Shown piece by piece: positions 5,820 to 63,148 of a stretch of 64,000 bases of DNA; within the stretch, counting starts at the first letter, position 1, and each line of letters begins with the position of its first letter. Under the pieces are notes generated by a model. The model made no database searches. It saw nothing but the letters and a program-made list of their open reading frames with translations, and was not told where the DNA came from. Location of the stretch: positions 75,909,699 through 75,973,698 of the forward strand of contig NC_090374.1 in NCBI RefSeq assembly GCF_036365525.1, given 5' to 3'. The translations under genes were made by a program, and so were the position numbers. The stretch is from Heterodontus francisci. Lineage: Eukaryota.

Positions 5820-6062
5820 TCCAATGGTGCCATGAAACCATAATCGATTGTCATAAAAAAACTCATCAGGTTCACTAATGTCCTTTAGGAAAGGAAATCA
5901 TCTGTCCTTACCTGGTCTGGCCTACATGTGACTCCAGACCCACAGCAATGTGGTTAGTGCTTAACTGCCCTCTGAAATGGCCTAGCAAGCCACTCAGTTG
6001 TCAAGGGCAATTAGGGATGGGCAACAAATGCTTGCCTTGCCAGTGACATCCAAATCCCACAC
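5820..6062 (+). mobile_element. 5'-truncated tRNA-head SINE (body + LINE-derived tail)
   Basis: ggttcactaatgtcctttagg...ccttacctggtctggcctacatgtgactccagacccacagcaatgtgg...cactcagttgtcaagggcaattagggatgggcaa. Homologous copies at 38970-40665, 51790-53060 and 62745-63148. Confidence 0.85.
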
Positions 6063-6671
6063 ACACTCAGGACATGATAGAAAAGCAGCAAATGTACACC
6101 TAGAGCAGTATGTAAATTATATTTGCCGTGGACAGTCCCAGACTCATGCTTCTCTCAATCCCTGGCTGCCCACCATAAGCCAGCAATTATTCTTCCAGTG
6201 TTACTGCATAGACATAATCTAACCATAAGAATGCATTTCAATTTTGTTTCTGAAGTAAATCAAATTGCTCTGGCTATAAATAAACTGCATAAAATACTTG
6301 ACAGTATGTTGACCTCGCAGTAAGCAGTAGCAGATGTGACAGTTGTCTTGAACTCAGAAAAGGCTACATTATACTGCAGTTTCCAAATCCTCTCCTCCAA
6401 CACTTCCAAACATAGCCAAAACCAGGTCCGTTGGCATTGGAGGTTTATAGGATATATAGTTACACTATGACAGCTATGACACTGCAAATATTATACAAGA
6501 TTTATACCACATCCCAAATAGGGAATGTAAACCGAGTGGTAAGACTATAATTTGTTTAATTTTATTAGCTATAATCAGCACATTGCATTTTTCTCCCGAT
6601 AATCTTAAGTTACAGTTGAGTGAACAGAACACCACCAGTAATTGCAAACTTGTGTAATGAGGATGTAGTGC

Positions 6672-8345: not shown

Positions 8346-9049
8346 TTACCAGTCAGTTCACTGCCACCACCATCACCACCCCCCCCCCCCCCAAGACAAA
8401 TATTAGGAACCCAGCCCATAAAAGGGAAAAGAGATGGAGTATCCTCAACAATTCTTGGAAGATGGCGGCCAGTGGACAGTGAGGTGAAGAACCCCTGAAA
8501 AAACAGTGGAGTCCCAGCACCCAAGTGAAATGATCAAAGTAAAACATGAAAAATACAAGCGTCCCAACATCCATCTCCCACCCTCAAATGCACCTCCTTC
8601 ATGACCTATAATTCCCCTCCTTCAGAGTGAACAATAATCCGTGACCCATCCAGCCACAAGCAGCAAGTTGTGTTAGCATCACTCCTCTCATTGGCCCAAA
8701 TATCTTCAGTTCACTGTTGGCTGCAACACCTCCACCTCCATCCTCACTCTGGCTGACCTCTCATTCAATGTAGATTCCCCCTCATAGAATAACCTCGTCC
8801 CATCTTATTTTCCTGTTTACAGTAACTCCTTCCTACCAGACAGAATTTCCCATTCACAGAACCCTCTGCCTTCATCCTTTAGGCCATGTAAATAAAACTT
8901 TTAAAAAAAACAAATTCTGCAAGTTAGAACGTTCCCCAAAACAGCAGCCGAGTCCATAATTCAAACAATTTTCTTTTCTTAGCATAGTGAAAAGATCTGA
9001 AATTTAGAATTCTATGAGTCAGGATAAACAAAAGGATTTAGGTACACTA

Positions 9050-11738
9050 GCTTAGTGCTTACGTTACTAGACTAGTAATTCAGACACTAATTCAAATCCC
9101 ATTATAGGAGCTGATGTGAATTTAAATTCAGTTAATTAAAATAAACCTGGAATAAAAAGTTAGCATCACTAATGGTGACCATGTAACTACCAGATTGTTT
9201 GAAGAGGGAAGGAAATCTGCCACCTTTACCTCATCTGGCTTATATGATTTCAGACCCACAGCAATGTTGGCTGACTCTTATCTGCCCTCTGAAATGGTCC
9301 AGCAAGCCATTCAGTTGTATAAAACTGCTACAAGAAACAAGACAGACCAAAGACCTGAAGGACATATCTGCCAGACAGGGCCTAAGAACTTACTTCACCT
9401 AATCCTCACCAATCGACGTGTCACAGATGCATCTGTCCATGACAGTATTGGAAGGACTGAACAATGCACACTCCTTGTGAAGACCAAGTCCTGTCTTTAC
9501 ACAGAGGATATACTCTATTGTGTCATGTTGCAATACTATGCTAAATAGGATGGACTCAGAACAGATCTAGCAGCTTAAAACTGGGCACCCATGAGGCTCT
9601 GTGGGCCATCGGCATTCCACCACAATCTGTAACCTTGTGACCCTGTATATCTTTCACTCCATCATTACCCTCCTGCTAGGGAGCCAACCCTGGTTCAATG
9701 AAGAGTGCACGACAGAATGCTAGCAGCAGCACCAGGTATACTTGAAAATGAAGTGGCAATCTGGTGAAGCTACAACAGAGGACTGCATGCAAGCTGAACA
9801 ACAGAAGCAGCTTGCTATAGAGCTAACCGATCCCACAACTAGATCAAAGCTGTCTGAAGTCTTGCCATGTCCAGTCATGACTGGTGCTGGTCAATTAAAC
9901 AATTAATGGGAGGAGGAGGTTCCACAAACATCCCCATCCACAATGATAGCAAGGTCCAACATGTGAATGGAAAAGACAAAGTCGAGGCTTTGCAACCACT
10001 TTCAGCCAGCAGTGCTGCGTGGATGATCCATCAAAATCTCCTCCTGCGATCCCCACCATCACAGAAGCCAGTCTTCAGCCAATTCAATTCACTCCATGTG
10101 ATAAAGAAACAGCTAAACACACTGGACACAGCAAAGGCTATGGGCCTCGGCAACATCCCTGCTACAGTGCTGAAGACTCGTGCGCCTGGACTAGTCACAC
10201 CTCTAGCCAAACTGTTCCAGTACAGCTATAACACTAGCATCTACCTAGCGAAGTGGAAAATTGCCCAGGTATGCCCTGTCCCCAAAAAGCAGAATAAATC
10301 CAATCTGGCTATTTATTGCCCATTAGCCTACTCTCAATCATTAGCAAAGTAATGGAAGGGTCCATCAAGCAGCACTTGCTCATCAATAACCTTCTCATTG
10401 ATGCGCGGTCTGGATTCCTCCAGGATCACGCTGCTCCAGACCTCATTACAGCCTTGGCCCCAAACGTGAACAAAGGAGCTGAATTCCAGAAATGAAATGA
10501 GAGCGACTGCCCTTGACATCAAGTCAACATTTGACTGGGTGTGGGATTAAGGAGTCCTAGAAAAATTTAAGCCAATGGAATTCAGGGGGAAAACTGGTGT
10601 CATACCTAGCACAAAGGAAGATGGTTGTCATATAAAAGTTCTAATGAAAGGTCACAGACCTGAAAAGTTAACTCTGCTGCTCTCTCCAGAGATGCTGCCA
10701 GACCTGCTGAGTATTTTCAGCACTTAGTTTTTATTTGAGATTTCCAGCATGTGCAGTACTTTGCTTTTATTTAAGATGGCTGTGGTTGTTGGAGGCCAAT
10801 CATCTCAGCCCCAAGACATCGCTGCAGGAGTTCCTCAGGCCAGTGTCCTAGGCTCATGAATTTTCAGTTGCCTCATCAATGACTTTCCCTCCATCCTAAG
10901 ATCAGAAGTGAGGATGTTCACTGATGGTTGCACGGTATTCAGTTACATTCACAACTCCTCAGAAACTGAAGCAGTCCATGCCTGCATGCAATAAGATCTG
11001 GACAACATTCAGGTTTGGGCTGATAAGTAGCAAGTAACATTTGTGCCACACAAGTGCCAGGCAATGATCATCGAGAGAATCTAACCACATCCTCCTTGCA
11101 TTCAACAGCATTACCAACACCAAATCCCCCATCAACTTCCTGGGGGTTACCACTGACCAGAAACCTAACTGGACTGGCCACAAATACTGTGGCGACAAGA
11201 GCAGGTCATAGGCTGGGATTTCTCAGTAACTCACCTCCTGACTCCCCACCATCTACAAGGCTCAAGTTAGGAGTGTGATGGAACACTCTGCATTAGCTTG
11301 GATGACTGCAGCTCCAACATGCAAAGCTACACACCACCCAGGACAAAGCAGTTCGCTTGATTGAGACACTATCCACCACCTTAAATATTCACTCCCTCCA
11401 CACCATGGTTGCAATGTATACCATCTACAAAGGTGCATGCAGCAACACACCATGTCTTGTTCAAAAACTACCGCCTAGAAAGGAAAGGGCAGTAAGCACG
11501 TGGTAACACCGCCACCTCCACGCCTCACACCATCCAGACGTGGAAATATATCCTTCAACATCGCTGGGTCAAAATCCTAGGACTCCCTACTGAACAGCTA
11601 TGGGAGTAGCTTCACCTCATGGATTACAGCAGTTCAACATAGCTGCTCATCACACCCTTCTCAGGGACAATTAGAGATGGGGCAATAAATGGTGGCCTTA
11701 CAACTACACCCACATCCAATGAATAAATATAAAAAAGA
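9050..11738 (+). mobile_element. Degraded EN-RT LINE (CR1-group, distinct family) with tRNA-like/SINE-like 5' head
   Basis: The 5' part matches the SINE head and body. Then an EN relic (LILTN..VTDASVHDSIG) and RT motifs (LDTAKAMGLGNIPATVLKT.APGLVTPLAKLFQYSY; GVPQASVLG; MFTDGC). Ends in gggacaattagagatggggcaataaat...aataaatataaaaaa. Confidence 0.85.
10629..10772 (+). mobile_element. Penelope-like terminal fragment with decayed hammerhead motif, nested in the LINE
   Basis: ttctaatgaaaggtcacagacctgaaaagttaac...ctctccagagatgctgccagacctgctgagtattttcagca, flanked by aagatggttgt / aagatggctgt direct repeats. Confidence 0.75.
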
Positions 11739-21037: not shown

Positions 21038-21315
21038 GGGCGGCACAGTGGTTAGCACCGCAGCCTCACAGCTCCAGCGACCCAGGTTCAGTTCTGGGTA
21101 CTTCCCACCTCCAAAAGACTTGCAGGTTGATAGGTAAATTGGCCATTGTAAATTGCCCCTAGTGTAGGTAAGTGGTAGGATAATGGTGGGGATGTGGTAG
21201 AGAATTTGGGATTAATGTAGGATTAGGATAAATGGGTGGTTGTTGGTCAGCACAGACTCAGTGGGCCGAAGGGCCTGTTTCAGTGCTGTATCTATAAATA
21301 TAATATAAATCTAAA
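21038..21315 (+). mobile_element. V-SINE (HE1-like), internally deleted
   Basis: gggcggcacagtggttagcaccgcagcctcacagctccagcgacccaggttcagttc tRNA-like head; most of the V-domain is missing; tail gggccgaagggcctgtttcagtgctgta followed by an A-rich end. Confidence 0.85.
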
Positions 21316-24879: not shown

Positions 24880-26770
24880 AAATTAAATGAAGCCAATTTC
24901 ATAGGTATGAGGGGAGAGCTGACTAAACAGACACAAAAGGTTTTTTTTTTAGTTCATTCATGGGATGTGGGCGTCACTGGCGAGGCCAGCATTTATTGCC
25001 CATCCCCAATTGCCCCCGAGAAGGTGGAGGTGAGCTGCTTTCTTGAGCCACTGCAGTCCATGTGGGATAGGTACACCCACAGTGCTATTAGGAAGGGATT
25101 TTGACCCAGCACTAGTGAAGGAACGGCGATATAGTTCCAAGTCAGGATGGTGTGTGGCTTGGAGGGGAACTTGCAGGTGGTGGTGTTCCCAAGCATCTGC
25201 TGCCCTTGTCCTTCTAGGTGGTAGCGGTCGCAGGTTTGGAAGGTGCTGTGGTACGTTGCTGCAGTGCATCTTGTAGATGCTATACACTGCTGCCACTGTG
25301 CATTGTGTGGTCAATAAACAATGGGCAATATCTAAAGAAACTATTCAAAATCACGTTCCATTAAAAAACAAAAACTCAGCGAGAAAGATCCATCTGTGGC
25401 TTATTAGGGAAGTTAAGGACAATATTAGATTAAAAGATGGAACCACAGGCCAGTTATCTGGAAAATGCTGGAATCTTAATGTACTTAGAAAACTAAGTAT
25501 GATCAGAGTCAAAATGGTTTTACAGAAGGAAAATCATGTTTGACAAATCTATTGAGGTTTTTTGAGGTGGTAACTCGTAGGGTAGATAAAGGGAAGTCAG
25601 TAGATGCATTATATTTGGATTTCCAAAAGGCATTCGATAAGGTGCCAACAAAAGATTAGTATGCAAGTTAAGGGTTTATGGAGTTCAGGGTATTATAATT
25701 AGCATGGATGAAGCATTGGTTAATGGACAGGAAGCAGACAGTAGGGGTGAACAGGGCACTTTCAAGTTGGCAGGCAATAACTAATGAAATGTAACAAGAT
25801 CAGTGCTGGGTCTCTGCTATTTACAATCTACATTGATGACTTAGACAAAGAGACCAATAGCAATACATCCAATTTTGCTGACGATACAAAACTTGGTGTG
25901 AAAGTAAGCTGTGAGGACATGGAGGCTGCAAGGAGATGTAGACAGGTTAAGTGAGTGGGCAACAAGGTGGCAGGTGGAATATAATATGGGGAAGTTATTC
26001 ACTTTGGTAATGAATAGAAAAGCAGAATATTTTTTTAAAGATGGTCAATGTTGTAATTGTAAATGTTGATGCTCAGATACTTGGGTGTACTCATACAAGG
26101 AACATAAATCAGCATGCAGGTACAGCAAGCAATTAGGAAGACAAACTGGCAATTAGGGATGGGCAATAAATACTGGCATAGCCAGTGACACCCACATTCC
26201 CCAAACGGAATTTTAAAATATGTTGGCCTTTATTGCAAGACGATTGGAGTACACGAATAAGCAAGTCTTCACAGCCGACAGCTGGAGTACTGTGCATAGT
26301 TTTGGTCTCCATATCTAAGAAAGGATATACTTGCGTTGGAGACAGTACAGCGAAGGTTCACTAGATTGGTCCCTGGGATGAGAGGGGTTGAGTAAAATTG
26401 GGCCTACACTCTCTGGAGTTCAGACGAATTAGAGGTGATGTCATTGAAACATACAAGATTCTGAAGGGACTTGACAGGATAGACAGAGGTCATTTCTCCT
26501 GGATGGAGAATCTAGAACACAGGGGCAGTCTCAGGATAAGGATACGATCATTTAGGACTGAGCTGAGGAGAAATTTCTTCACTCACAGGGTTGTGAATCC
26601 TTGAAATTCTCTACCCCAGAGGGTTGTGGATGTTCCATCATTGAGTCTATTCAAACCTGAGATAGCAGAGCAGGCAGGCAAGTGGATTTGAGAATGATCA
26701 GTCGTGGTCGTACTGGTGGAGCAGGCTCGAGGGGTTGTATGGTTGCTCCTATTTCTTATGTTATGTTCTC
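24880..26770 (+). mobile_element. Degraded CR1 with internal deletions and nested tails of the tRNA-head LINE family
   Basis: [15 protein letters not shown] and GLHSLEFRRIRGDVIETYKIL motifs; nested inserts at 24940-25305 (-) and 26148-26205 (+). Confidence 0.85.
24940..25305 (-). mobile_element. 3' end of the tRNA-head LINE family
   Basis: Reverse complement matches 11390-11738 (atctacaagatgcactgcagcaac...ggcaattggggatgggcaataaatgctggcc...A-tail). Confidence 0.85.
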
Positions 26771-28300: not shown

Positions 28301-28307
28301 TTCAAGC

Positions 28308-28965
28308 ATTGTGGTAATGTTACTACACGAATAACCCACAGGCCTGGACTATTGCTCTGAAGACATGAGTTCTAATCTGGCCACAGCAGTTGAGGGAAAT
28401 TTAATTTCAATTAATAAATATATCTGAGATGAAGAGATGTCTCAGTAATAATGATCATGAAACTACCGGAATGTCGTAAAAACCCATCTGCTTCATTAAA
28501 TGTCCCTCAGGATAGGAAATCTGCTGTCCTGAACTGGTCTGGCCGACATGCAACTCTCGACTCAACAATGTACTTGACTCTTAACTGCCCGATGAAATGG
28601 TCTAGCAAGCCACCTCAGTTGTATGAAACTGCTACAGAAAATTCAAAGAACAAAAATCAGACAGACCACCCTGCACTGACCAACGCACCGGATATGAAAA
28701 ATACACACCCAGTGGATCCTGCAAAGTCCTCCTCACGAACATAAGGAGACTTGTGCCAAAATTGAGAGCGCTGTCCCACTGACTAATCAAGCAACAGCCT
28801 GACAAGTCATACTCCGAATTACACCTTGCAGCCAATGTCCCTGGGTACGTCCTGTCCCACCGCCAGGACAGACCCACCAGAGGTGGCAGCACAGTGGTTT
28901 ACAGTCAGGAGGAAGGGACCCTGGCAGTACTCAACATTGATTCCAGACCCCATGCAGTCTCATAA
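28308..28965 (+). mobile_element. 5' end of the tRNA-head LINE (head + body + start of endonuclease)
   Basis: gtggtaatgttacta...acatgagttctaatc head, SINE-like body, then EN-coding relic (NI.RLVPKLRALSH*LIKQQPD...PGYVLSHRQDRPTRGGSTVVYS). Confidence 0.8.
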
Positions 28966-38969: not shown

Positions 38970-40665
38970 CTTTTTAATTTATTCTTTCATGAGATGCGGG
39001 CATCGCTGGCAAGGAAAGCATTTGCTGCCCATCCCTAATTGCCCTTGAAATGGAGTGGCTTGCGAGGCCATTTCAGAAGGCAGTTAAGAGTCAACCACAT
39101 TACGTACGAACATACATATGAAGACGCAAATTAGGAGGAGTGGGCCACTCAGCCCCTCGAGTCTGCTCTGCCATTCAATAAGTTCAAGGCTGAATTGATC
39201 ACTCCACATGCCCGCCTACCCCCGATTACATTCCACCCCGTTGCTCATCAAGAATCTATCTACCTCTGCCTTAAAAATATTCAAAGACTCTGCTTCCATT
39301 GCCTTGTGAGGAAGAGAATTCCAAAGACGCACAACCCTCAGAAAATATTTCTCATCACTGTCTAACAATAAGGGGTCACCCATTTAAAACAGTGACCCCT
39401 AGTTCTAGATTCTCCCACAAGGGGCAACATCCTTTCCACATCCACCCTGTCAAGACTCCTCAGGATTTTAAATCTTTTAATCAAGTCACCTCTTACTCTT
39501 CTAAATTCCAGCGGATAAAGGCCTAGCCCGTCCAATCTTTCCTCATAAGTCAGCCTGCCCATTCCAGGTATTAGTCTAGTCAACCTTCTCTGAACTGCTC
39601 CCAAAACATTTACATCCTTCCTTAAATAAGGAGACCAATACTTTACACAGTACTCCAGATGTGGTCTCACCAATGCAGTGTATAGCTGAATCATAACCTC
39701 CCTACTTGTGTATTCAATTCCCTTTGCAATAAATTATAACATTCTATTAGCTTTCCCAATTACTTGCTGTACTTGCATACTAACCTTTTGTGATTCATGC
39801 ACAAGGACACCCTGATCCCTCTGCATCTCAGAGCTCTGCAATGTCTCACCATTTAGATAATGCTTCTTTTTTGTTCTTCCTGCCAAAATGGACAATTTCA
39901 CATTTTCCCACATTATACTCCATTTTCCAGGTCTTTGCCCACTCACTTAACTTATCTATATCTCTTTGTAGCCTCATGTCCTCTTCACAAAATACTTTCC
40001 TATCTATCTTCATATCAGCAAATTTAGCAACCATACCTTCGGTCCCTTCAGCTAAGTCATTTATATCAATTGTAAAAAATTGAGGCCCCAGCACAGATCC
40101 CTGTGGCACACCACTTGTTACATCTTGCCAACCAGAAAATGACACATTTATGCCATCTTTGTTTCCTGTTAGCTAGCCAATCTTCTATGGATGCCAATGT
40201 TACCCCTACACCATGAGCTTTTTTTTTTTCACAACGTCCTTTGATTTGGCACCTTATGAAAAGGCCTTCTGGAAATTTAAGTACAATACATCCATCAGTT
40301 CCCCTTCATCCACAGCACATATAACTCCCTCGAAGAACTCCAATAAATTGGTTAAACATGATCTCCCTTTCACAAAACCATGCTGACTCTGCCTGATTGC
40401 AGTGCTGTGGGTCTGGAGTCACATGTAGTCCAGACCAGGTAAGGATGTCAGATTTCCTTCCCGAAAGGACATTAGTGAACCAGATGGGTTTTTAAATGAC
40501 AATCGATGATAGTTTCACAGCACCATTACTGAGACTAGCTTCCTATTACAGATTTTTTTTTTTTAATTAAATTTAAATTCCATCAGCTGCCATGGTGGGA
40601 TTTGAACCGGTGTCCCCATGGCATTAGCCTGGGCTCTGGATTACCACTACACCATCATCTCCCTG
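38970..40665 (-). mobile_element. tRNA-head SINE split by a CR1 insertion
   Basis: The tail half at 38970-39102 ends gagtcaaccacatt; the element resumes near 40400 with gctgtgggtctggagtcacatg and runs to the head (ggtgggatttgaacc = B box, ccactacaccatc = A box, both reverse-complemented). Confidence 0.85.
39103..40400 (-). mobile_element. CR1 LINE, 5'-truncated
   Basis: ORFs 39362-39694 and 39846-40145 with [10 protein letters not shown] and LVRPHLEYC. Confidence 0.9.
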
Positions 40666-40689
40666 AGCCAATTGCTGGCAGAAGGAATA

Positions 40690-46326: not shown

Positions 46327-46405
46327 GAAATGTTAACTTTTGCTCTCTCCACATATCCTGCCTGGCCTGCTGAGTATTTCCAGCATTTTCGGTTTCTATT
46401 TCATT
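46327..46405 (+). mobile_element. Remainder of the Penelope-like terminus
   Basis: gaaatgttaacttttgctctctccacatatcctgcctggcctgctgagtatttccagcatttt is colinear with the uninterrupted copy at 10660-10740. Confidence 0.8.
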
Positions 46406-51789: not shown

Positions 51790-53060
51790 GAAAGACGGTG
51801 GTGCTGTTGTAAGGTCTTTTAACTAGTAATCCAGAGACCCTGACTAATGCCCAGGGATAACCGATTCAAATCCCACCACAGCAGCTGGTGGAATTTAAAG
51901 TCAATTTTTATGAATAAAAAATAAATCTGGAATTGAATGAAGTGTCTCCTAACAACCCAGAGCAGTTGCTGACGTCAATGCACCCGAAAACTTGCCAGCA
52001 CGAATCCGCGCATGTGCGCGTGGCATTACCACATAAAGACGTCAGTATTGCCTCACTGCTCAATGGCTGCGACTGCTGCCTCATTACCCTGCTTCCTCCA
52101 GTGATCCCCGCTTCTCTTCCCCACTCCCTCTCGCGCCCGTCTGCTCACTGCTCCACCCTGCTGTTCTTTCCTGCTCCCGACTGCTCATTTCCCGCCTTGC
52201 CATTCGCACCCCCCGCTTCTCTGTGCAGCGAGGCATGGAGTGAGCGGCGGGAGGGAACGGCGAGCAGATGGGTGTGGGACAGAACAGCAGGTCGGCGCCG
52301 CGAGCAGACAGGCGTCAGAGGCAGCGTGGAAGAGAAGCAGCAACTGAAGCTGTGATCGCAGGATTGAGCAGGGTACGGTTTGGTGTGGGGGGGGGGGGGG
52401 GGGGGGTTGGGGGTGGTCACATGGAGGCAGCAATTGCGGCCATTGAGGGAGGTCCTTGGGGGGTAAAGTTGTTCCCAGTGTGGCAGTGGGGTCCTTCGTG
52501 GATGAATTTCCCCTGGAGGAGGAACCTCCCCCCACCCCCACCACCCCAAGGCACAGGGATGGGGGTCTCATTTTACAAGGCATCCTCTCCGTATAGCGGA
52601 GGCCCTCCCCGTTGGTAAGATCTCAGCAGCAGCAGGAAAAGGCCCTTAATAGTCCACTTAAGGGCCTCAATTGGCATCTGGCCAGGAAACCGTTGTCAGC
52701 CTATCCTTCCCCCAGGAAGATCGCTGGGCGACGGGGAGGCGACAGGTCTGCTGCCCCGCCATCCGTTGCGATCCTCCGTGGCACCCCCCACCCCAACCCC
52801 CTCTCGGGGGCCTCACAAAATCCTGGCCCTAGTCTGAGTCATGGTACCATGAAATTATCATTGATAGTCATAAAAACCCATCTGGTTCACTAATTAGAGA
52901 AGAAAATCTGCGGTCCTTACCTGCTCTGGCCACAGCAATGTGGTTGACTCTTAACTGCCCTCTGAAATGGCCTAGCAAGCCACTCAGTTATCAAGATCAA
53001 TTAGGGATGGGCAGCCTTGCCAGCAATGCCCACATCCCATGAAAGAATTTTTTTTTTTAT
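51790..53060 (+). mobile_element. tRNA-head SINE split by a MITE-like insert
   Basis: Head gacggtggtgctgttgtaa...cgattcaaatcccaccacagcagctggtggaattt at 51795-51935; body and tail at 52830-53050. Confidence 0.8.
51940..52829. mobile_element. GC-rich MITE-like element (Harbinger-type terminus)
   Basis: Ends caaaatcctggccc; shares ccacttaagggcctcaattggc with 13045-13070; left terminus unclear. Confidence 0.55.
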
Positions 53061-53850: not shown

Positions 53851-54167
53851 GGGCGGCACAGTGGTGCAGTGGTTAGCACCGCAGCCTCACAGCTCCAGGG
53901 ACCCAGGTTCAATTCTGGGTACTGCCTGTGCGGAGTTTGCAAGTTCTCCGTGACTGCGTGGGTTTTCGCCGGGTGCTCCGGTTTCCTCCCACAGCCAAAG
54001 ACTTGCAGGTGATAGGTAAATTGGCCATGGTAAATTGCCCCTAGTGTAGGTAGGTAGTAGGGAATATGGGATTACTGTAGGGTTAGTATAAATGGGTGGC
54101 TGTTGGTCGGCACAGACTCGGTGGGCCGAAGGGCCTGTTTCAGTGCTGTATCTCTAAATAAATAAAA
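53851..54167 (+). mobile_element. Full-length V-SINE (HE1-like)
   Basis: A box gtggtgcagtggttagc, B box ggttcaattc, V-domain gtttgcaagttctcc...gcgtgggttttcgccgggtgctccggtttcctcccacagccaaagac, CR1-type tail and (taaa)n. Confidence 0.92.
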
Positions 54168-54800
54168 TGAAGCAGAAAAAAGGATGTGCATGATAAATGT
54201 CACACTGATAATACATGTTAGAACCAGGCAGAATATAGAAAACTCAAAAGGGAAGTGAAAAAGAAAATACAAGAGGCAAAGAGAGAGTATGAGAAGAAAC
54301 TGGCAGCTAAAATAAAAGCAAATCCAAAATTTCTTCTATAGGCATATAAATAGTAAAAGGATAGCAAGAGGAGGAGTGGGGTCAATTAGGAACCAAAAAG
54401 GTGTTGCATGCATGGAGGCAGAGGGCATGGCTGAGGTACTAAATAAGTATTTTACATCGGTCCTTACCAAGGAAGAAGGTGCTGCCAAAGGTCATAGTGA
54501 AAGGAGGTGGTAGTTGAAATGCTGGATGGGCTAAAAATTGATAAAGGTGGTATTGGAAAGGCCAGATGTACTTAAAGTTGATAAGTCACCAGGACTGGAT
54601 GAAATGAGTCCCAAGATGTGGAGGGCAATAAGTGTGGAAAGTTGTGGAGGTACTGACAATCTTCCAATCCTCCTTTGATATAGGGGTGATGCCAAAAGAC
54701 TAGAGAATTGCAAATGTCACACCCTTGTTCAAAAAAGGGTGCAAGGACAAACCCAGCAACTGCAGGCCAGTCAGTTTAACCTCAGGTGGTGGGAAAGTTG

Positions 54801-55150
54801 TTAGTGGTGCAGTGGTTAGCACTGCAGCCTCACAGCTCCAGCGACCTGGGTTCGATTCTGGGTATTGACTGTGCAGAGTTTGCAAGTTCTCCCTGTGACC
54901 GCGCGGGTTTTTGCCGGGTGCTCCGATTTCCTCCCACAGCCAAAGACTTGCAGGTTGATAGGTAAATTAGCCATTATAAATTGCCCCTAGTATAGGTAGG
55001 TGGTAGGGGAATTGAGGGAAGGTGGGGATGTGAGGGTAATGGGATTAATGTAGGATTAGTATAAATGGGCGGTTGATGGGCGGCGCAGACTCGGTGGGCC
55101 AAAGGGCCTGTTTCAATGCTGTATCGCTAAATAAAATAAAAAATAAATAA
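54801..55150 (+). mobile_element. V-SINE (HE1-like)
   Basis: Same head, V-domain and tail as 53851-54167. Confidence 0.9.
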
Positions 55151-57779: not shown

Positions 57780-57958
57780 GTTGCTGGGTCAAAATCCTGG
57801 AACTCCCTGCCTAACAGCACTGTGGGTGTACCTACACTCCAAGAACTGCAGCAGTTTAAGGCAGCTCACCACCACCTTCTCAAGGGCAATTAGGGATGGG
57901 CAATAAATGCTGGCCTAGCCAGTGACACCCACATTCCATGAATAAATAAAAAAAGAAA
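57780..57958 (+). mobile_element. 3' tail of the tRNA-head LINE family
   Basis: gctgggtcaaaatcctggaactccc...caagggcaattagggatgggcaataaatgctggcctagccag...aataaataaaaaa. Confidence 0.85.
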
Positions 57959-61801: not shown

Positions 61802-61814
61802 CTTATATAGCAAG

Positions 61815-62228
61815 TCTGAGACAGCTTAGTAGTAAGACCCTCACTACTCAGCCAGATCATGAGGTTAAGCCCTATTTCTGAGACCTGAGCACATAAACTC
61901 AGCTGGCACTTCACTATAGTACTGAGGGAGTGGTGCATTGTGTCGCTGTCTTTCGGATGACATGTTAAACTGAAGCCCTACCTCCTCCACTCGTCACTAC
62001 TCGAAGAGCGGGGGGTGGGGGGGTCCCCCAGGTACCTTGGCCTATATTTCTCTCTCAACCATCTAACCAGATTATCTGGTCATTTATCTCACTGCTGTTT
62101 GTGGGACCCTTCAAACTGGTTGCTGCATTTGCCTACATTAGAGCAGCGACTATAAAATGTAATCCATCTGTTGTGAAGCACTTTAGGATGTTGAGAACAT
62201 GAGTTATACAAATGTAAACTTTAAAAAA
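61815..62228 (+). mobile_element. DeuSINE (SacSINE1/AmnSINE-like)
   Basis: tRNA-like head, gtactgagggagtggtgcattg...gtctttcggatgacatgttaaactga, attatctggtcatttatctcactgctgtttgtgggacc (Deu-domain-like as recalled) and L2-type tail. Confidence 0.7.
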
Positions 62229-62419: not shown

Positions 62420-62745
62420 AAGCATTTACAGCACAGGAGGCAGCTATTCGGCCTATCGAGCTCATAGCAGCTCTCCATGGAGCCATCCAGTCAGTCCCAC
62501 TCCCCCACTCGATCCCCACAGCCCTGCAAGTTTATTTCCTTCGTGGCCACTCAATTTCCTTTTGAAATCAGATTGTCTCCTTAAACCACACTTGGGGGGG
62601 GGGGGGGGGGGAAAAGAGAGCTCCAGGTCATCATCACCCACCACATGACAAAGTTCTTCCTCTTCATCCCCCTGCATCGCTTGCCCAAAACTTTCAATCT
62701 GTGTCTCATTAACTGATGGTGCAAGGACTAAGGGAACAGTTTTGC
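62420..62745 (-). mobile_element. CR1 3' fragment
   Basis: Reverse complement of the same tail family as 41160-41420. Confidence 0.75.
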
Positions 62746-63148
62746 CCTTGAGAAGGTGATGGTGAGCTGCCCTCTGGAACCACTGCAGTCCTTTGTGTAG
62801 TGGTGTTGTACAACTGAATGAAATGGCCTAGCAAGCCAGAGTGCAGCTAAGAGTCAACCACATTTTGCTGGGTCTGGAGTCACATGTAGGCCAGACCAGG
62901 TAAGGATGGCAGATTTCCTTCCCTAAAAGACATTAGTGAACTAGATAGGTTTTGACAACAATCGATGGTAGTTTTATGGTCACCATTACGAAGACTAGCT
63001 TTCAATTCCAGATTTTTATTCATGAAATTTATTAATTGAATGTAAATTCCGCCAGCTGCCATGGTGGGATTTGAACCCATGTCCCCAGATTATCCTGGGT
63101 CTCTGGATTGCTAGTCCAGTGACGTTACCACGACGCCACCGTCTCCCC
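62745..63148 (-). mobile_element. tRNA-head SINE, long-junction variant with a micro-inversion
   Basis: Minus strand ggggagacggTGGCGTCGTGGtaacgtcactggactagcaatccagag...GGTTCAAATCCcacc (A and B boxes), body, then cagttgtacaacaccactacacaaaggactgcagtggttc...caagggca. Confidence 0.85.

Follow-up and report, generated by a model that had tools for sequence, protein, structure and literature searches.

LINEs are held to be RNA polymerase II (Pol II) elements, and SINEs to be Pol III elements composed of a small-RNA head and a borrowed tail. In the 64,000-nucleotide stretch of Heterodontus francisci DNA analyzed here (the window), the same tRNA-like head and body stand at the 5' end of a SINE and of two LINE copies. 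This arrangement raises the questions of whether the head is the genuine start of an autonomous LINE, whether the SINEs descend from that LINE, and which polymerase transcribes it.

SINE and LINE copies in the window share a tRNA-like 5' end

BLAST searches within the window and alignments grouped ten pieces into one family: LINE copies A and B, one SINE with a long tail, three SINEs with a short tail, two pieces made of the head or of head and body, and two tail-only pieces (Table 1). The initial annotation had placed the A and B boxes of the local SINE on the minus strand near 63060-63148. We located them in the SINE at 62742-63148 (minus strand), the A box at 63128-63138 and the B box at 63067-63077, and ARAGORN called a tRNA on this head. 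Its best Rfam match was tRNA-Sec (26.8 bits, E 0.0036), under the gathering score of 47; no Rfam family matched at gathering level anywhere in the window. As that annotation had also seen, the head and body of the SINE form the 5' end of both LINE copies, with BLAST matches of 66.7% over 282 nt to copy A (E 9e-20) and of 71.1% over 249 nt to copy B (E 6e-28).

Table 1. Positions of the LINE and SINE copies of the family in the window
Feature	Positions	Strand	Remarks
Copy A, decayed tRNA-like head	9041..9105	+	About 25 nt of the variable arm gone; B-box remnant near 9090-9099
Copy A, body (Zenon 5' UTR) plus the beginning of the stretch after it, in common with copy B	9106..9337	+	
Copy A, broken EN-RT frame, linker, RT	9350..11500	+	Continues from about endonuclease residue 200
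Later, unrelated 144-nt insert in copy A	10629..10772		11-bp target duplication (10/11 match)
Copy A, 3' end and A-rich tail	11500..11737	+	Common to the SINE tails
Copy B, tRNA-like head and body	28303..28636	+	
Copy B, spacer of about 90 nt from body to endonuclease	28637..28725	+	Same position in published consensus rows (by eye)
Copy B, N-terminal part of APE endonuclease	28726..28965	+	61% to shark protein P0161, E 2e-18
SINE, long-tail form: head, body, junction, LINE tail	62742..63148	-	Junction at 5-nt repeat CTACA (62796-62800); 3' end lost
SINE, short-tail form, 5'-truncated: body and last ~65 nt of the LINE	5822..6066	+	Joined at 4-nt repeat TCAA
SINE, short-tail form, 5'-truncated	52829..53045	+	
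SINE, short-tail form, 5'-truncated	38972..39101	-	
Head+body piece	40400..40668	-	Cut before the junction; SINE or LINE indistinguishable
Head-only piece	51793..51940	+	
5'-truncated LINE end (tail only)	24943..25290	-	
5'-truncated LINE end (tail only)	57783..57956	+	

Where the body ends, copies A and B are 88% alike over a span of 67 nt (BLAST), and about 33 nt crossing this boundary, up to 9337 in A and 28640 in B, are common to both, with a score reached by none of 500 shuffles. The proposal that both copies enter the endonuclease at the same junction holds for this common stretch but not for the entry into coding sequence, which differs since copy A has lost about 0.6 kb. Copy A, which starts at about 9041 with a decayed A box, is interrupted about 15 nt past the stretch common with copy B, and its frame carries many stops and frameshifts. 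Of the two, only copy B preserves the order of body, spacer and first endonuclease motif (28726), a motif that aligns with residue 28 of the relative P0031. The A and B boxes of copy B are also decayed, and a minus-strand CR1 piece cuts this copy at 28965. The shark protein P0161 matches the endonuclease parts of both copies. A SINE tail is absent between body and coding sequence in copy A (shuffle P 0.80) and in copy B (shuffle P 0.62), and we detected no significant target site duplication (TSD) around copy A (P 0.67). At its 3' end, copy A terminates in the same tail as the SINE, as alignment confirmed.

Two side observations concern these copies. The spacer contains a conserved ATG, found in copy B (28637-28725) and in published consensus rows, that starts a short reading frame in a different phase from that of the endonuclease. 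The 144-nt insert of copy A, which we take to resemble the end of shark Penelope-like elements, has a second piece at 46327-46401 and contains a decayed hammerhead-like core.

The LINE copies are degraded Zenon elements

The LINE copies of the window are degraded members of the abundant elasmobranch Zenon family, already catalogued in 2026 (PMC13343379, here and below for the parts of the paper available to us). Zenon elements are known from elasmobranchs, the coelacanth and hagfish, always without an ORF1 and with a poly-A tail, and the elasmobranch ones are stated to have been absent from repeat databases until then (PMC13343379). In the window, an APE endonuclease and an RT lie in one frame without an ORF1, as in Zenon of the CR1 group; the lack of an ORF1 between head and endonuclease, reported in the initial annotation, was borne out and is a known trait of Zenon (PMC13343379). 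The 3' ends of copy A and of both tail-only pieces are A-rich runs, as in Zenon elements. By eye, the 5' 400 nt match the published elasmobranch Zenon consensus sequences, and two motif strings derived from the window were confined to those rows.

The RT-region protein matches came from Heptranchias, Heterodontus, Pristiophorus and Rhincodon, and the closest full-length relatives were single-frame EN-RT proteins of amphioxus, Lepidoptera and metagenomes, the nearest of which, P0031, contains Exo_endo_phos and RVT_1 domains. In a 36-row tree of the linker and RT start, copy A grouped with two shark proteins (Heptranchias and Heterodontus; 100/100) and apart from the two canonical CR1 pieces of the window, in a tree with unresolved deep forks and no named Zenon reference among its rows. 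Pfam recognized one of four window pieces, weakly (RVT_1 in copy A, E 0.023). The endonuclease piece of copy B matched one of four proteins of similar length and none of 258 longer candidates. Scans with shark DNA patterns found nothing in viral contigs and nothing in metagenome contigs. Separately, the shark gene models P0002, P0003, P0004 and P0013 include an in-frame block of Zenon linker/RT sequence, through exonization or annotation error.

Because few intact Zenon frames survive in published genomes (0/2313, 1/1419 and 3/612; PMC13343379), the elasmobranch family may be largely dead.

The tRNA-like head is the 5' end of the family

Supplementary Table 2 of the same paper covers 1,003 families by the paper's count, and we compared the first 400 letters of each sequence in its ten Zenon rows (PMC13343379). 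By eye, all seven elasmobranch Zenon rows, from five species, open with the head, body, junction and spacer seen in the window, whereas none of the three hagfish and coelacanth rows has the head and body. Within the first 400 letters of the sequences of the table, five B-box strings matched six rows and one body string matched seven, all of them elasmobranch Zenon, so the layout is no general artefact of the pipeline. Six of the seven rows, from sharks and one ray, keep the A and B boxes at the extreme 5' end, and the seventh (HypSab) has an altered B box. The tRNA-like head is thus present in the published elasmobranch Zenon sequence, though unremarked there: in the main text as available, "tRNA", "promoter" and "polymerase III" do not occur, and no SINE is linked to the family (PMC13343379). 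A tRNA-headed Zenon or a Pol III-driven autonomous LINE was not described in the largely open-access literature that we searched.

Reads of the source species extended this comparison. We aligned four runs to copy B, requiring 80% likeness, and 14,598 of the 11,989,820 records in raw run X8 aligned. Depth in X8, which is not a measure of copy number, was 0 in the unique flank, peaked at 1642+1460 in the body and was no lower at the endonuclease start (2179+2291). Upstream of 28708, 1,646 loose read ends agreed on one sequence (agreement 0.87), which by eye is the published spacer; the 960 loose ends behind the body (28613) were mixed (0.60), which is the expected outcome where both SINE tails and LINE spacers follow. 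Depth was 10-50 over the head and spacer of copy B and 10-30 over the diverged spacer, regions too diverged to collect reads. Among the reads and contigs listed, none bridged body and endonuclease under a 31-letter rule. Given this and the low depth over the spacer, the link between body and endonuclease in the source species is a chain of overlaps.

With only two local copies, both old and without a TSD, one might attribute the layout to chance, to a local insertion of a SINE into a LINE, or to an artefact of consensus building. That reading is effectively refuted: no tail follows the body in copy A or B, the layout recurs in all seven elasmobranch rows and in no other row (PMC13343379), and one sequence dominates upstream in the 1,646 reads. 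A tail of this kind was among the marks of such an insertion named in the initial annotation. The family is built of the head, a body of about 220 nt, a spacer of about 90 nt, EN-RT and an A-rich tail, in five elasmobranch species and in the reads of the source species. These results support the head as the true 5' end of a single-ORF autonomous family, as had been suggested from the window alone.

As a head-less comparison set, we used 29 Zenon-like metagenome loci from a motif scan. ARAGORN called a tRNA in none of the 29, and none was similar to the head or body beyond A-runs. Relaxed ARAGORN settings gave scattered calls on both strands, which we treated as noise. Local alignment of head and body with the upstream regions of 26 of these relatives (three were too short) revealed no convincing counterpart; L029 was the sole locus to score above all 100 shuffles against the SINE, in 78 tests, and the match was not reproduced with copy B. 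Several head-less loci have an in-frame Met and a short basic peptide before the endonuclease. Among other features of these loci, the related loci L008 (~350-360) and L023 (~163-173, both frame-oriented) begin at a common point with an A-box-like string, with no B box, and the insect-type loci L002, L022 and L027 have a GC-rich conserved 5' block before the frame, perhaps a structured RNA. The tRNA head is likely an elasmobranch gain, as it is absent from the relatives in hagfish and coelacanth and from those of invertebrate type, although some head-less loci may be 5'-incomplete.

SINEs as probable internal-deletion products of the LINE

Six local copies reach the end of the body: two continue into the LINE spacer and four into the LINE tail. 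In these four SINEs, the body is joined to the LINE tail at two microhomology junctions. The long-tail SINE retains LINE-type letters past the body (1 of 500 shuffles) up to CTACA, a motif that recurs in the tail where the sequence resumes. The three short-tail SINEs join at TCAA, which lies in the tail and, according to the reads and consensus rows, also at the end of the body. All four short copies with both sides available thus consist of LINE 5' and 3' ends only, with the junction at short direct repeats, as in SIDEs. The short copies also have the makeup of SINE2 elements, namely, a tRNA-like head with A and B boxes and a LINE-derived 3' tail, with no coding frame. The SINEs look like deletion products, in agreement with the initial view of the SINE as a head-plus-tail derivative, and the structure of the junctions suggests that they probably arose from the Zenon LINE by internal deletion. 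For the short-tail form, the immediate source could be the long-tail SINE instead of the LINE.

The direction of this relationship might be reversed: an older tRNA SINE with a Zenon tail would have passed both head and body on to a Zenon LINE through template switching, and today's SINEs would stem from that SINE. This question is separate from that of the polymerase used. SINEs usually evolve by module exchange (PMC5499810), Zenon mobilizes several SINE superfamilies in bivalves (PMC11481361), and no counterpart of the body was detectable in the 5' regions of head-less Zenon elements, where the best of 26 loci was unconvincing. In addition, a small diagnostic indel separates copies A and B from the four local SINE-type bodies in which the site is present, so these SINEs come from a different subfamily than A and B do. 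Both indel types occur, by eye, among the published LINE consensus rows (PMC13343379), which weakens this last point. Moreover, a LINE receiving the module would have to take the 5' part of the SINE exactly up to its body/tail joint, a coincidence that deletion at direct repeats does not need, and deletion between 5-bp direct repeats is documented for Zenon (PMC6740152, partial text). We regard the transfer from SINE to LINE as unlikely.

Under the deletion origin that we prefer, template jumps or recombination between the short direct repeats (CTACA; TCAA) that flank the coding region would delete the frame, and the remaining head, body and tail would constitute a complete tRNA-type SINE at once. 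A LINE family with its own tRNA head would hence offer a one-step route to SINEs. As to annotation, LINE 5' ends may account for many of the shark "SINE" hits, and the tRNA-headed Zenon SINE is not to be filed under SacSINE1/Deu without a test.

Possible transcription of the LINE by Pol III

A and B boxes of the tRNA type recruit Pol III, and a run of at least four T terminates its transcription. The scan for such terminators, proposed in the initial annotation, showed them to be scarce on the coding strand, with 1 run of at least four T against 5.7 expected in 2,856 non-redundant nt, and with runs of one to three T and runs of A, C and G at expectation. T-matched controls contained 45 such runs in 13,792 nt, a comparison of 1 with 9.3 (Poisson P 0.0009). 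Over all five local pieces, the deficit had a P of 0.003 against base shuffles and of 0.057 against dinucleotide shuffles, the depletion resting on 2.9-3.7 kb of decayed DNA. Head-less relatives carry 7-31 runs of four or more T per full frame (n = 16), and the other LINE pieces of the window carry 5-9 (n = 5). A similar deficit of C runs was present in the control frames (10 vs 19.1), so run deficits may have other causes. The scarcity of TTTT on the coding strand favors, short of proof, a read-through of the element by Pol III.

From these sequence features, we consider it about evenly balanced, with a slight lean toward the affirmative, that Pol III drives transcription of the Zenon LINE from its tRNA-like head. 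An ancestor of the elasmobranch family would have acquired the tRNA-derived head; with TFIIIC bound to the A and B boxes, Pol III would transcribe across the nearly TTTT-free coding strand. The product would be an uncapped RNA of about 3.3 kb, and every full-length insertion would bring along a copy of the promoter. Translation of the frame would have to be cap-independent or begin at a non-AUG codon, the weakest step of the scheme. In HypSab_Zenon-1, the one intact-looking consensus that is printed up to and including the first endonuclease motif, we saw by eye no in-frame ATG after the last upstream stop (PMC13343379). The EN-RT protein would then bind the 3' tail and insert the element by target-primed reverse transcription, a step established for LINEs. 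If the head does drive the LINE, the element would be a natural multi-kilobase Pol III messenger, the translation of which must bypass the cap.

The head might instead be a fixed, passive part of the 5' UTR, with Pol II transcribing the LINE from a body promoter or through host read-through, as for other Zenon and CR1 elements; the importance of the head would then be confined to the SINE derivatives. Pol II generally transcribes LINEs (PMC5786205), butterfly Zenon and Persaeus have no Pol III promoter (PMC6740152), an uncapped coding RNA of 3.3 kb is hard to translate, and the T-run deficit is not significant against dinucleotide shuffles. What a passive head leaves unexplained is the retention of both boxes at the 5' extremity of six of the seven consensus rows, in sharks and a ray (PMC13343379), and a deficit that is specific to runs of at least four T and absent from head-less relatives. 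We judge a passive head to be a serious contender that is on the unlikely side.

A further alternative is that the tRNA-like fold serves as a processing signal, RNase P cutting a host read-through transcript at the head and setting its 5' end, by analogy with the self-cleaving ribozymes of R2 and RTE. The precise common 5' start of the seven consensus rows (PMC13343379) and the acceptance of the SINE head as a tRNA by ARAGORN would suit such processing, and other single-frame LINEs are known to have their 5' ends set by ribozymes (PMC5786205). Structure speaks against it: the acceptor stem is largely missing from the Rfam alignment and was not recovered in a four-copy fold, and the head folds no better than shuffles. 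The loss of the acceptor stem makes processing less likely, and this model does not predict the T-run deficit; we consider it very improbable. The body also had an unremarkable folding energy (z -0.72), and one of its 28 predicted pairs showed a two-sided change. No Rfam ribozyme, HDV-like ones included, matched at gathering level in the window or at E 5 in the SINE copy, a search that can miss decayed or family-specific ribozymes.

Taken jointly, the best explanation appears to be a tRNA-headed Zenon of about 3.3 kb, the head of which is likely an internal Pol III promoter and the SINEs of which likely arose by internal deletion, a combination to which we give a modest preference over its rivals as a whole. 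Its boldest form is tentative and falls somewhat short of even: an autonomous protein-coding retrotransposon would be transcribed end to end by Pol III from a captured tRNA promoter, through a 3-kb frame free of T-runs, be translated uncapped and in the absence of an in-frame AUG, give birth to SINEs by a single deletion, and represent a living LINE-SINE link that filled shark and ray genomes.

Comparison with known systems

The premise of the initial annotation that SINEs share only the tail with their LINE was overstated, as Persaeus (PMC6740152, partial text) and the bipartite SINE bodies of RTE and Vingi are known. Nearest to the window's LINE copies are the elasmobranch Zenon LINEs CarCar_, HypSab_, RhiTyp_, ScyCan_ and SquAca_Zenon (Stuart et al. 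2026, PMC13343379), which likewise lack an ORF1, end in an A-rich tail and measure about 3.3 kb. Head, body, junction and spacer are alike by eye, and in the portions available nothing differs in kind.

SacSINE1 and the DeuSINEs (PMC5499810, in part) also include a tRNA-headed shark SINE of similar length. They contain a Deu domain, by which we made the comparison with SacSINE1, and this domain is absent from the Zenon SINE body. A reading of the body as a Deu domain was dropped, as the published Deu alignment differs from it (PMC7245038, supplement). The UCON3 domain motif had no match in the window at up to 3 mismatches. A Deu motif occurs in the window only at 61945-61968, in another SINE (0/100 shuffles), and a second Deu motif had no match. 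This separate, old Deu-bearing SINE (~61810-62225, plus strand), which has no BLAST similarity to the tRNA-headed Zenon family, is likely a true SacSINE1-type copy. A third SINE family, presumably of HE1 type and with a tRNA head called by ARAGORN, has three near-full copies at 54796-55150 (plus strand), 53860-54167 and 21046-21309.

The bipartite SINEs Bov-tA, AfroSINE and CoeSINE4 (Kojima 2018, PMC5786205) have the same composition of tRNA head, LINE 5' UTR and LINE 3' end. In these, the head was added after the deletion and the autonomous RTE or Vingi element is head-less, whereas in sharks the autonomous element itself carries the head.

The Persaeus SIDEs of lepidopteran Zenon (Wang et al. 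2019, PMC6740152, partial text) are, like the window's SINEs, nonautonomous combinations of Zenon 5' and 3' ends; their deletion is bordered by 5-bp direct repeats and arose several times. Neither Persaeus nor its Zenon is reported there to have tRNA homology or a Pol III promoter. The 5' end of the shark LINE is itself tRNA derived, and its deletion product, unlike Persaeus, is therefore a SINE.
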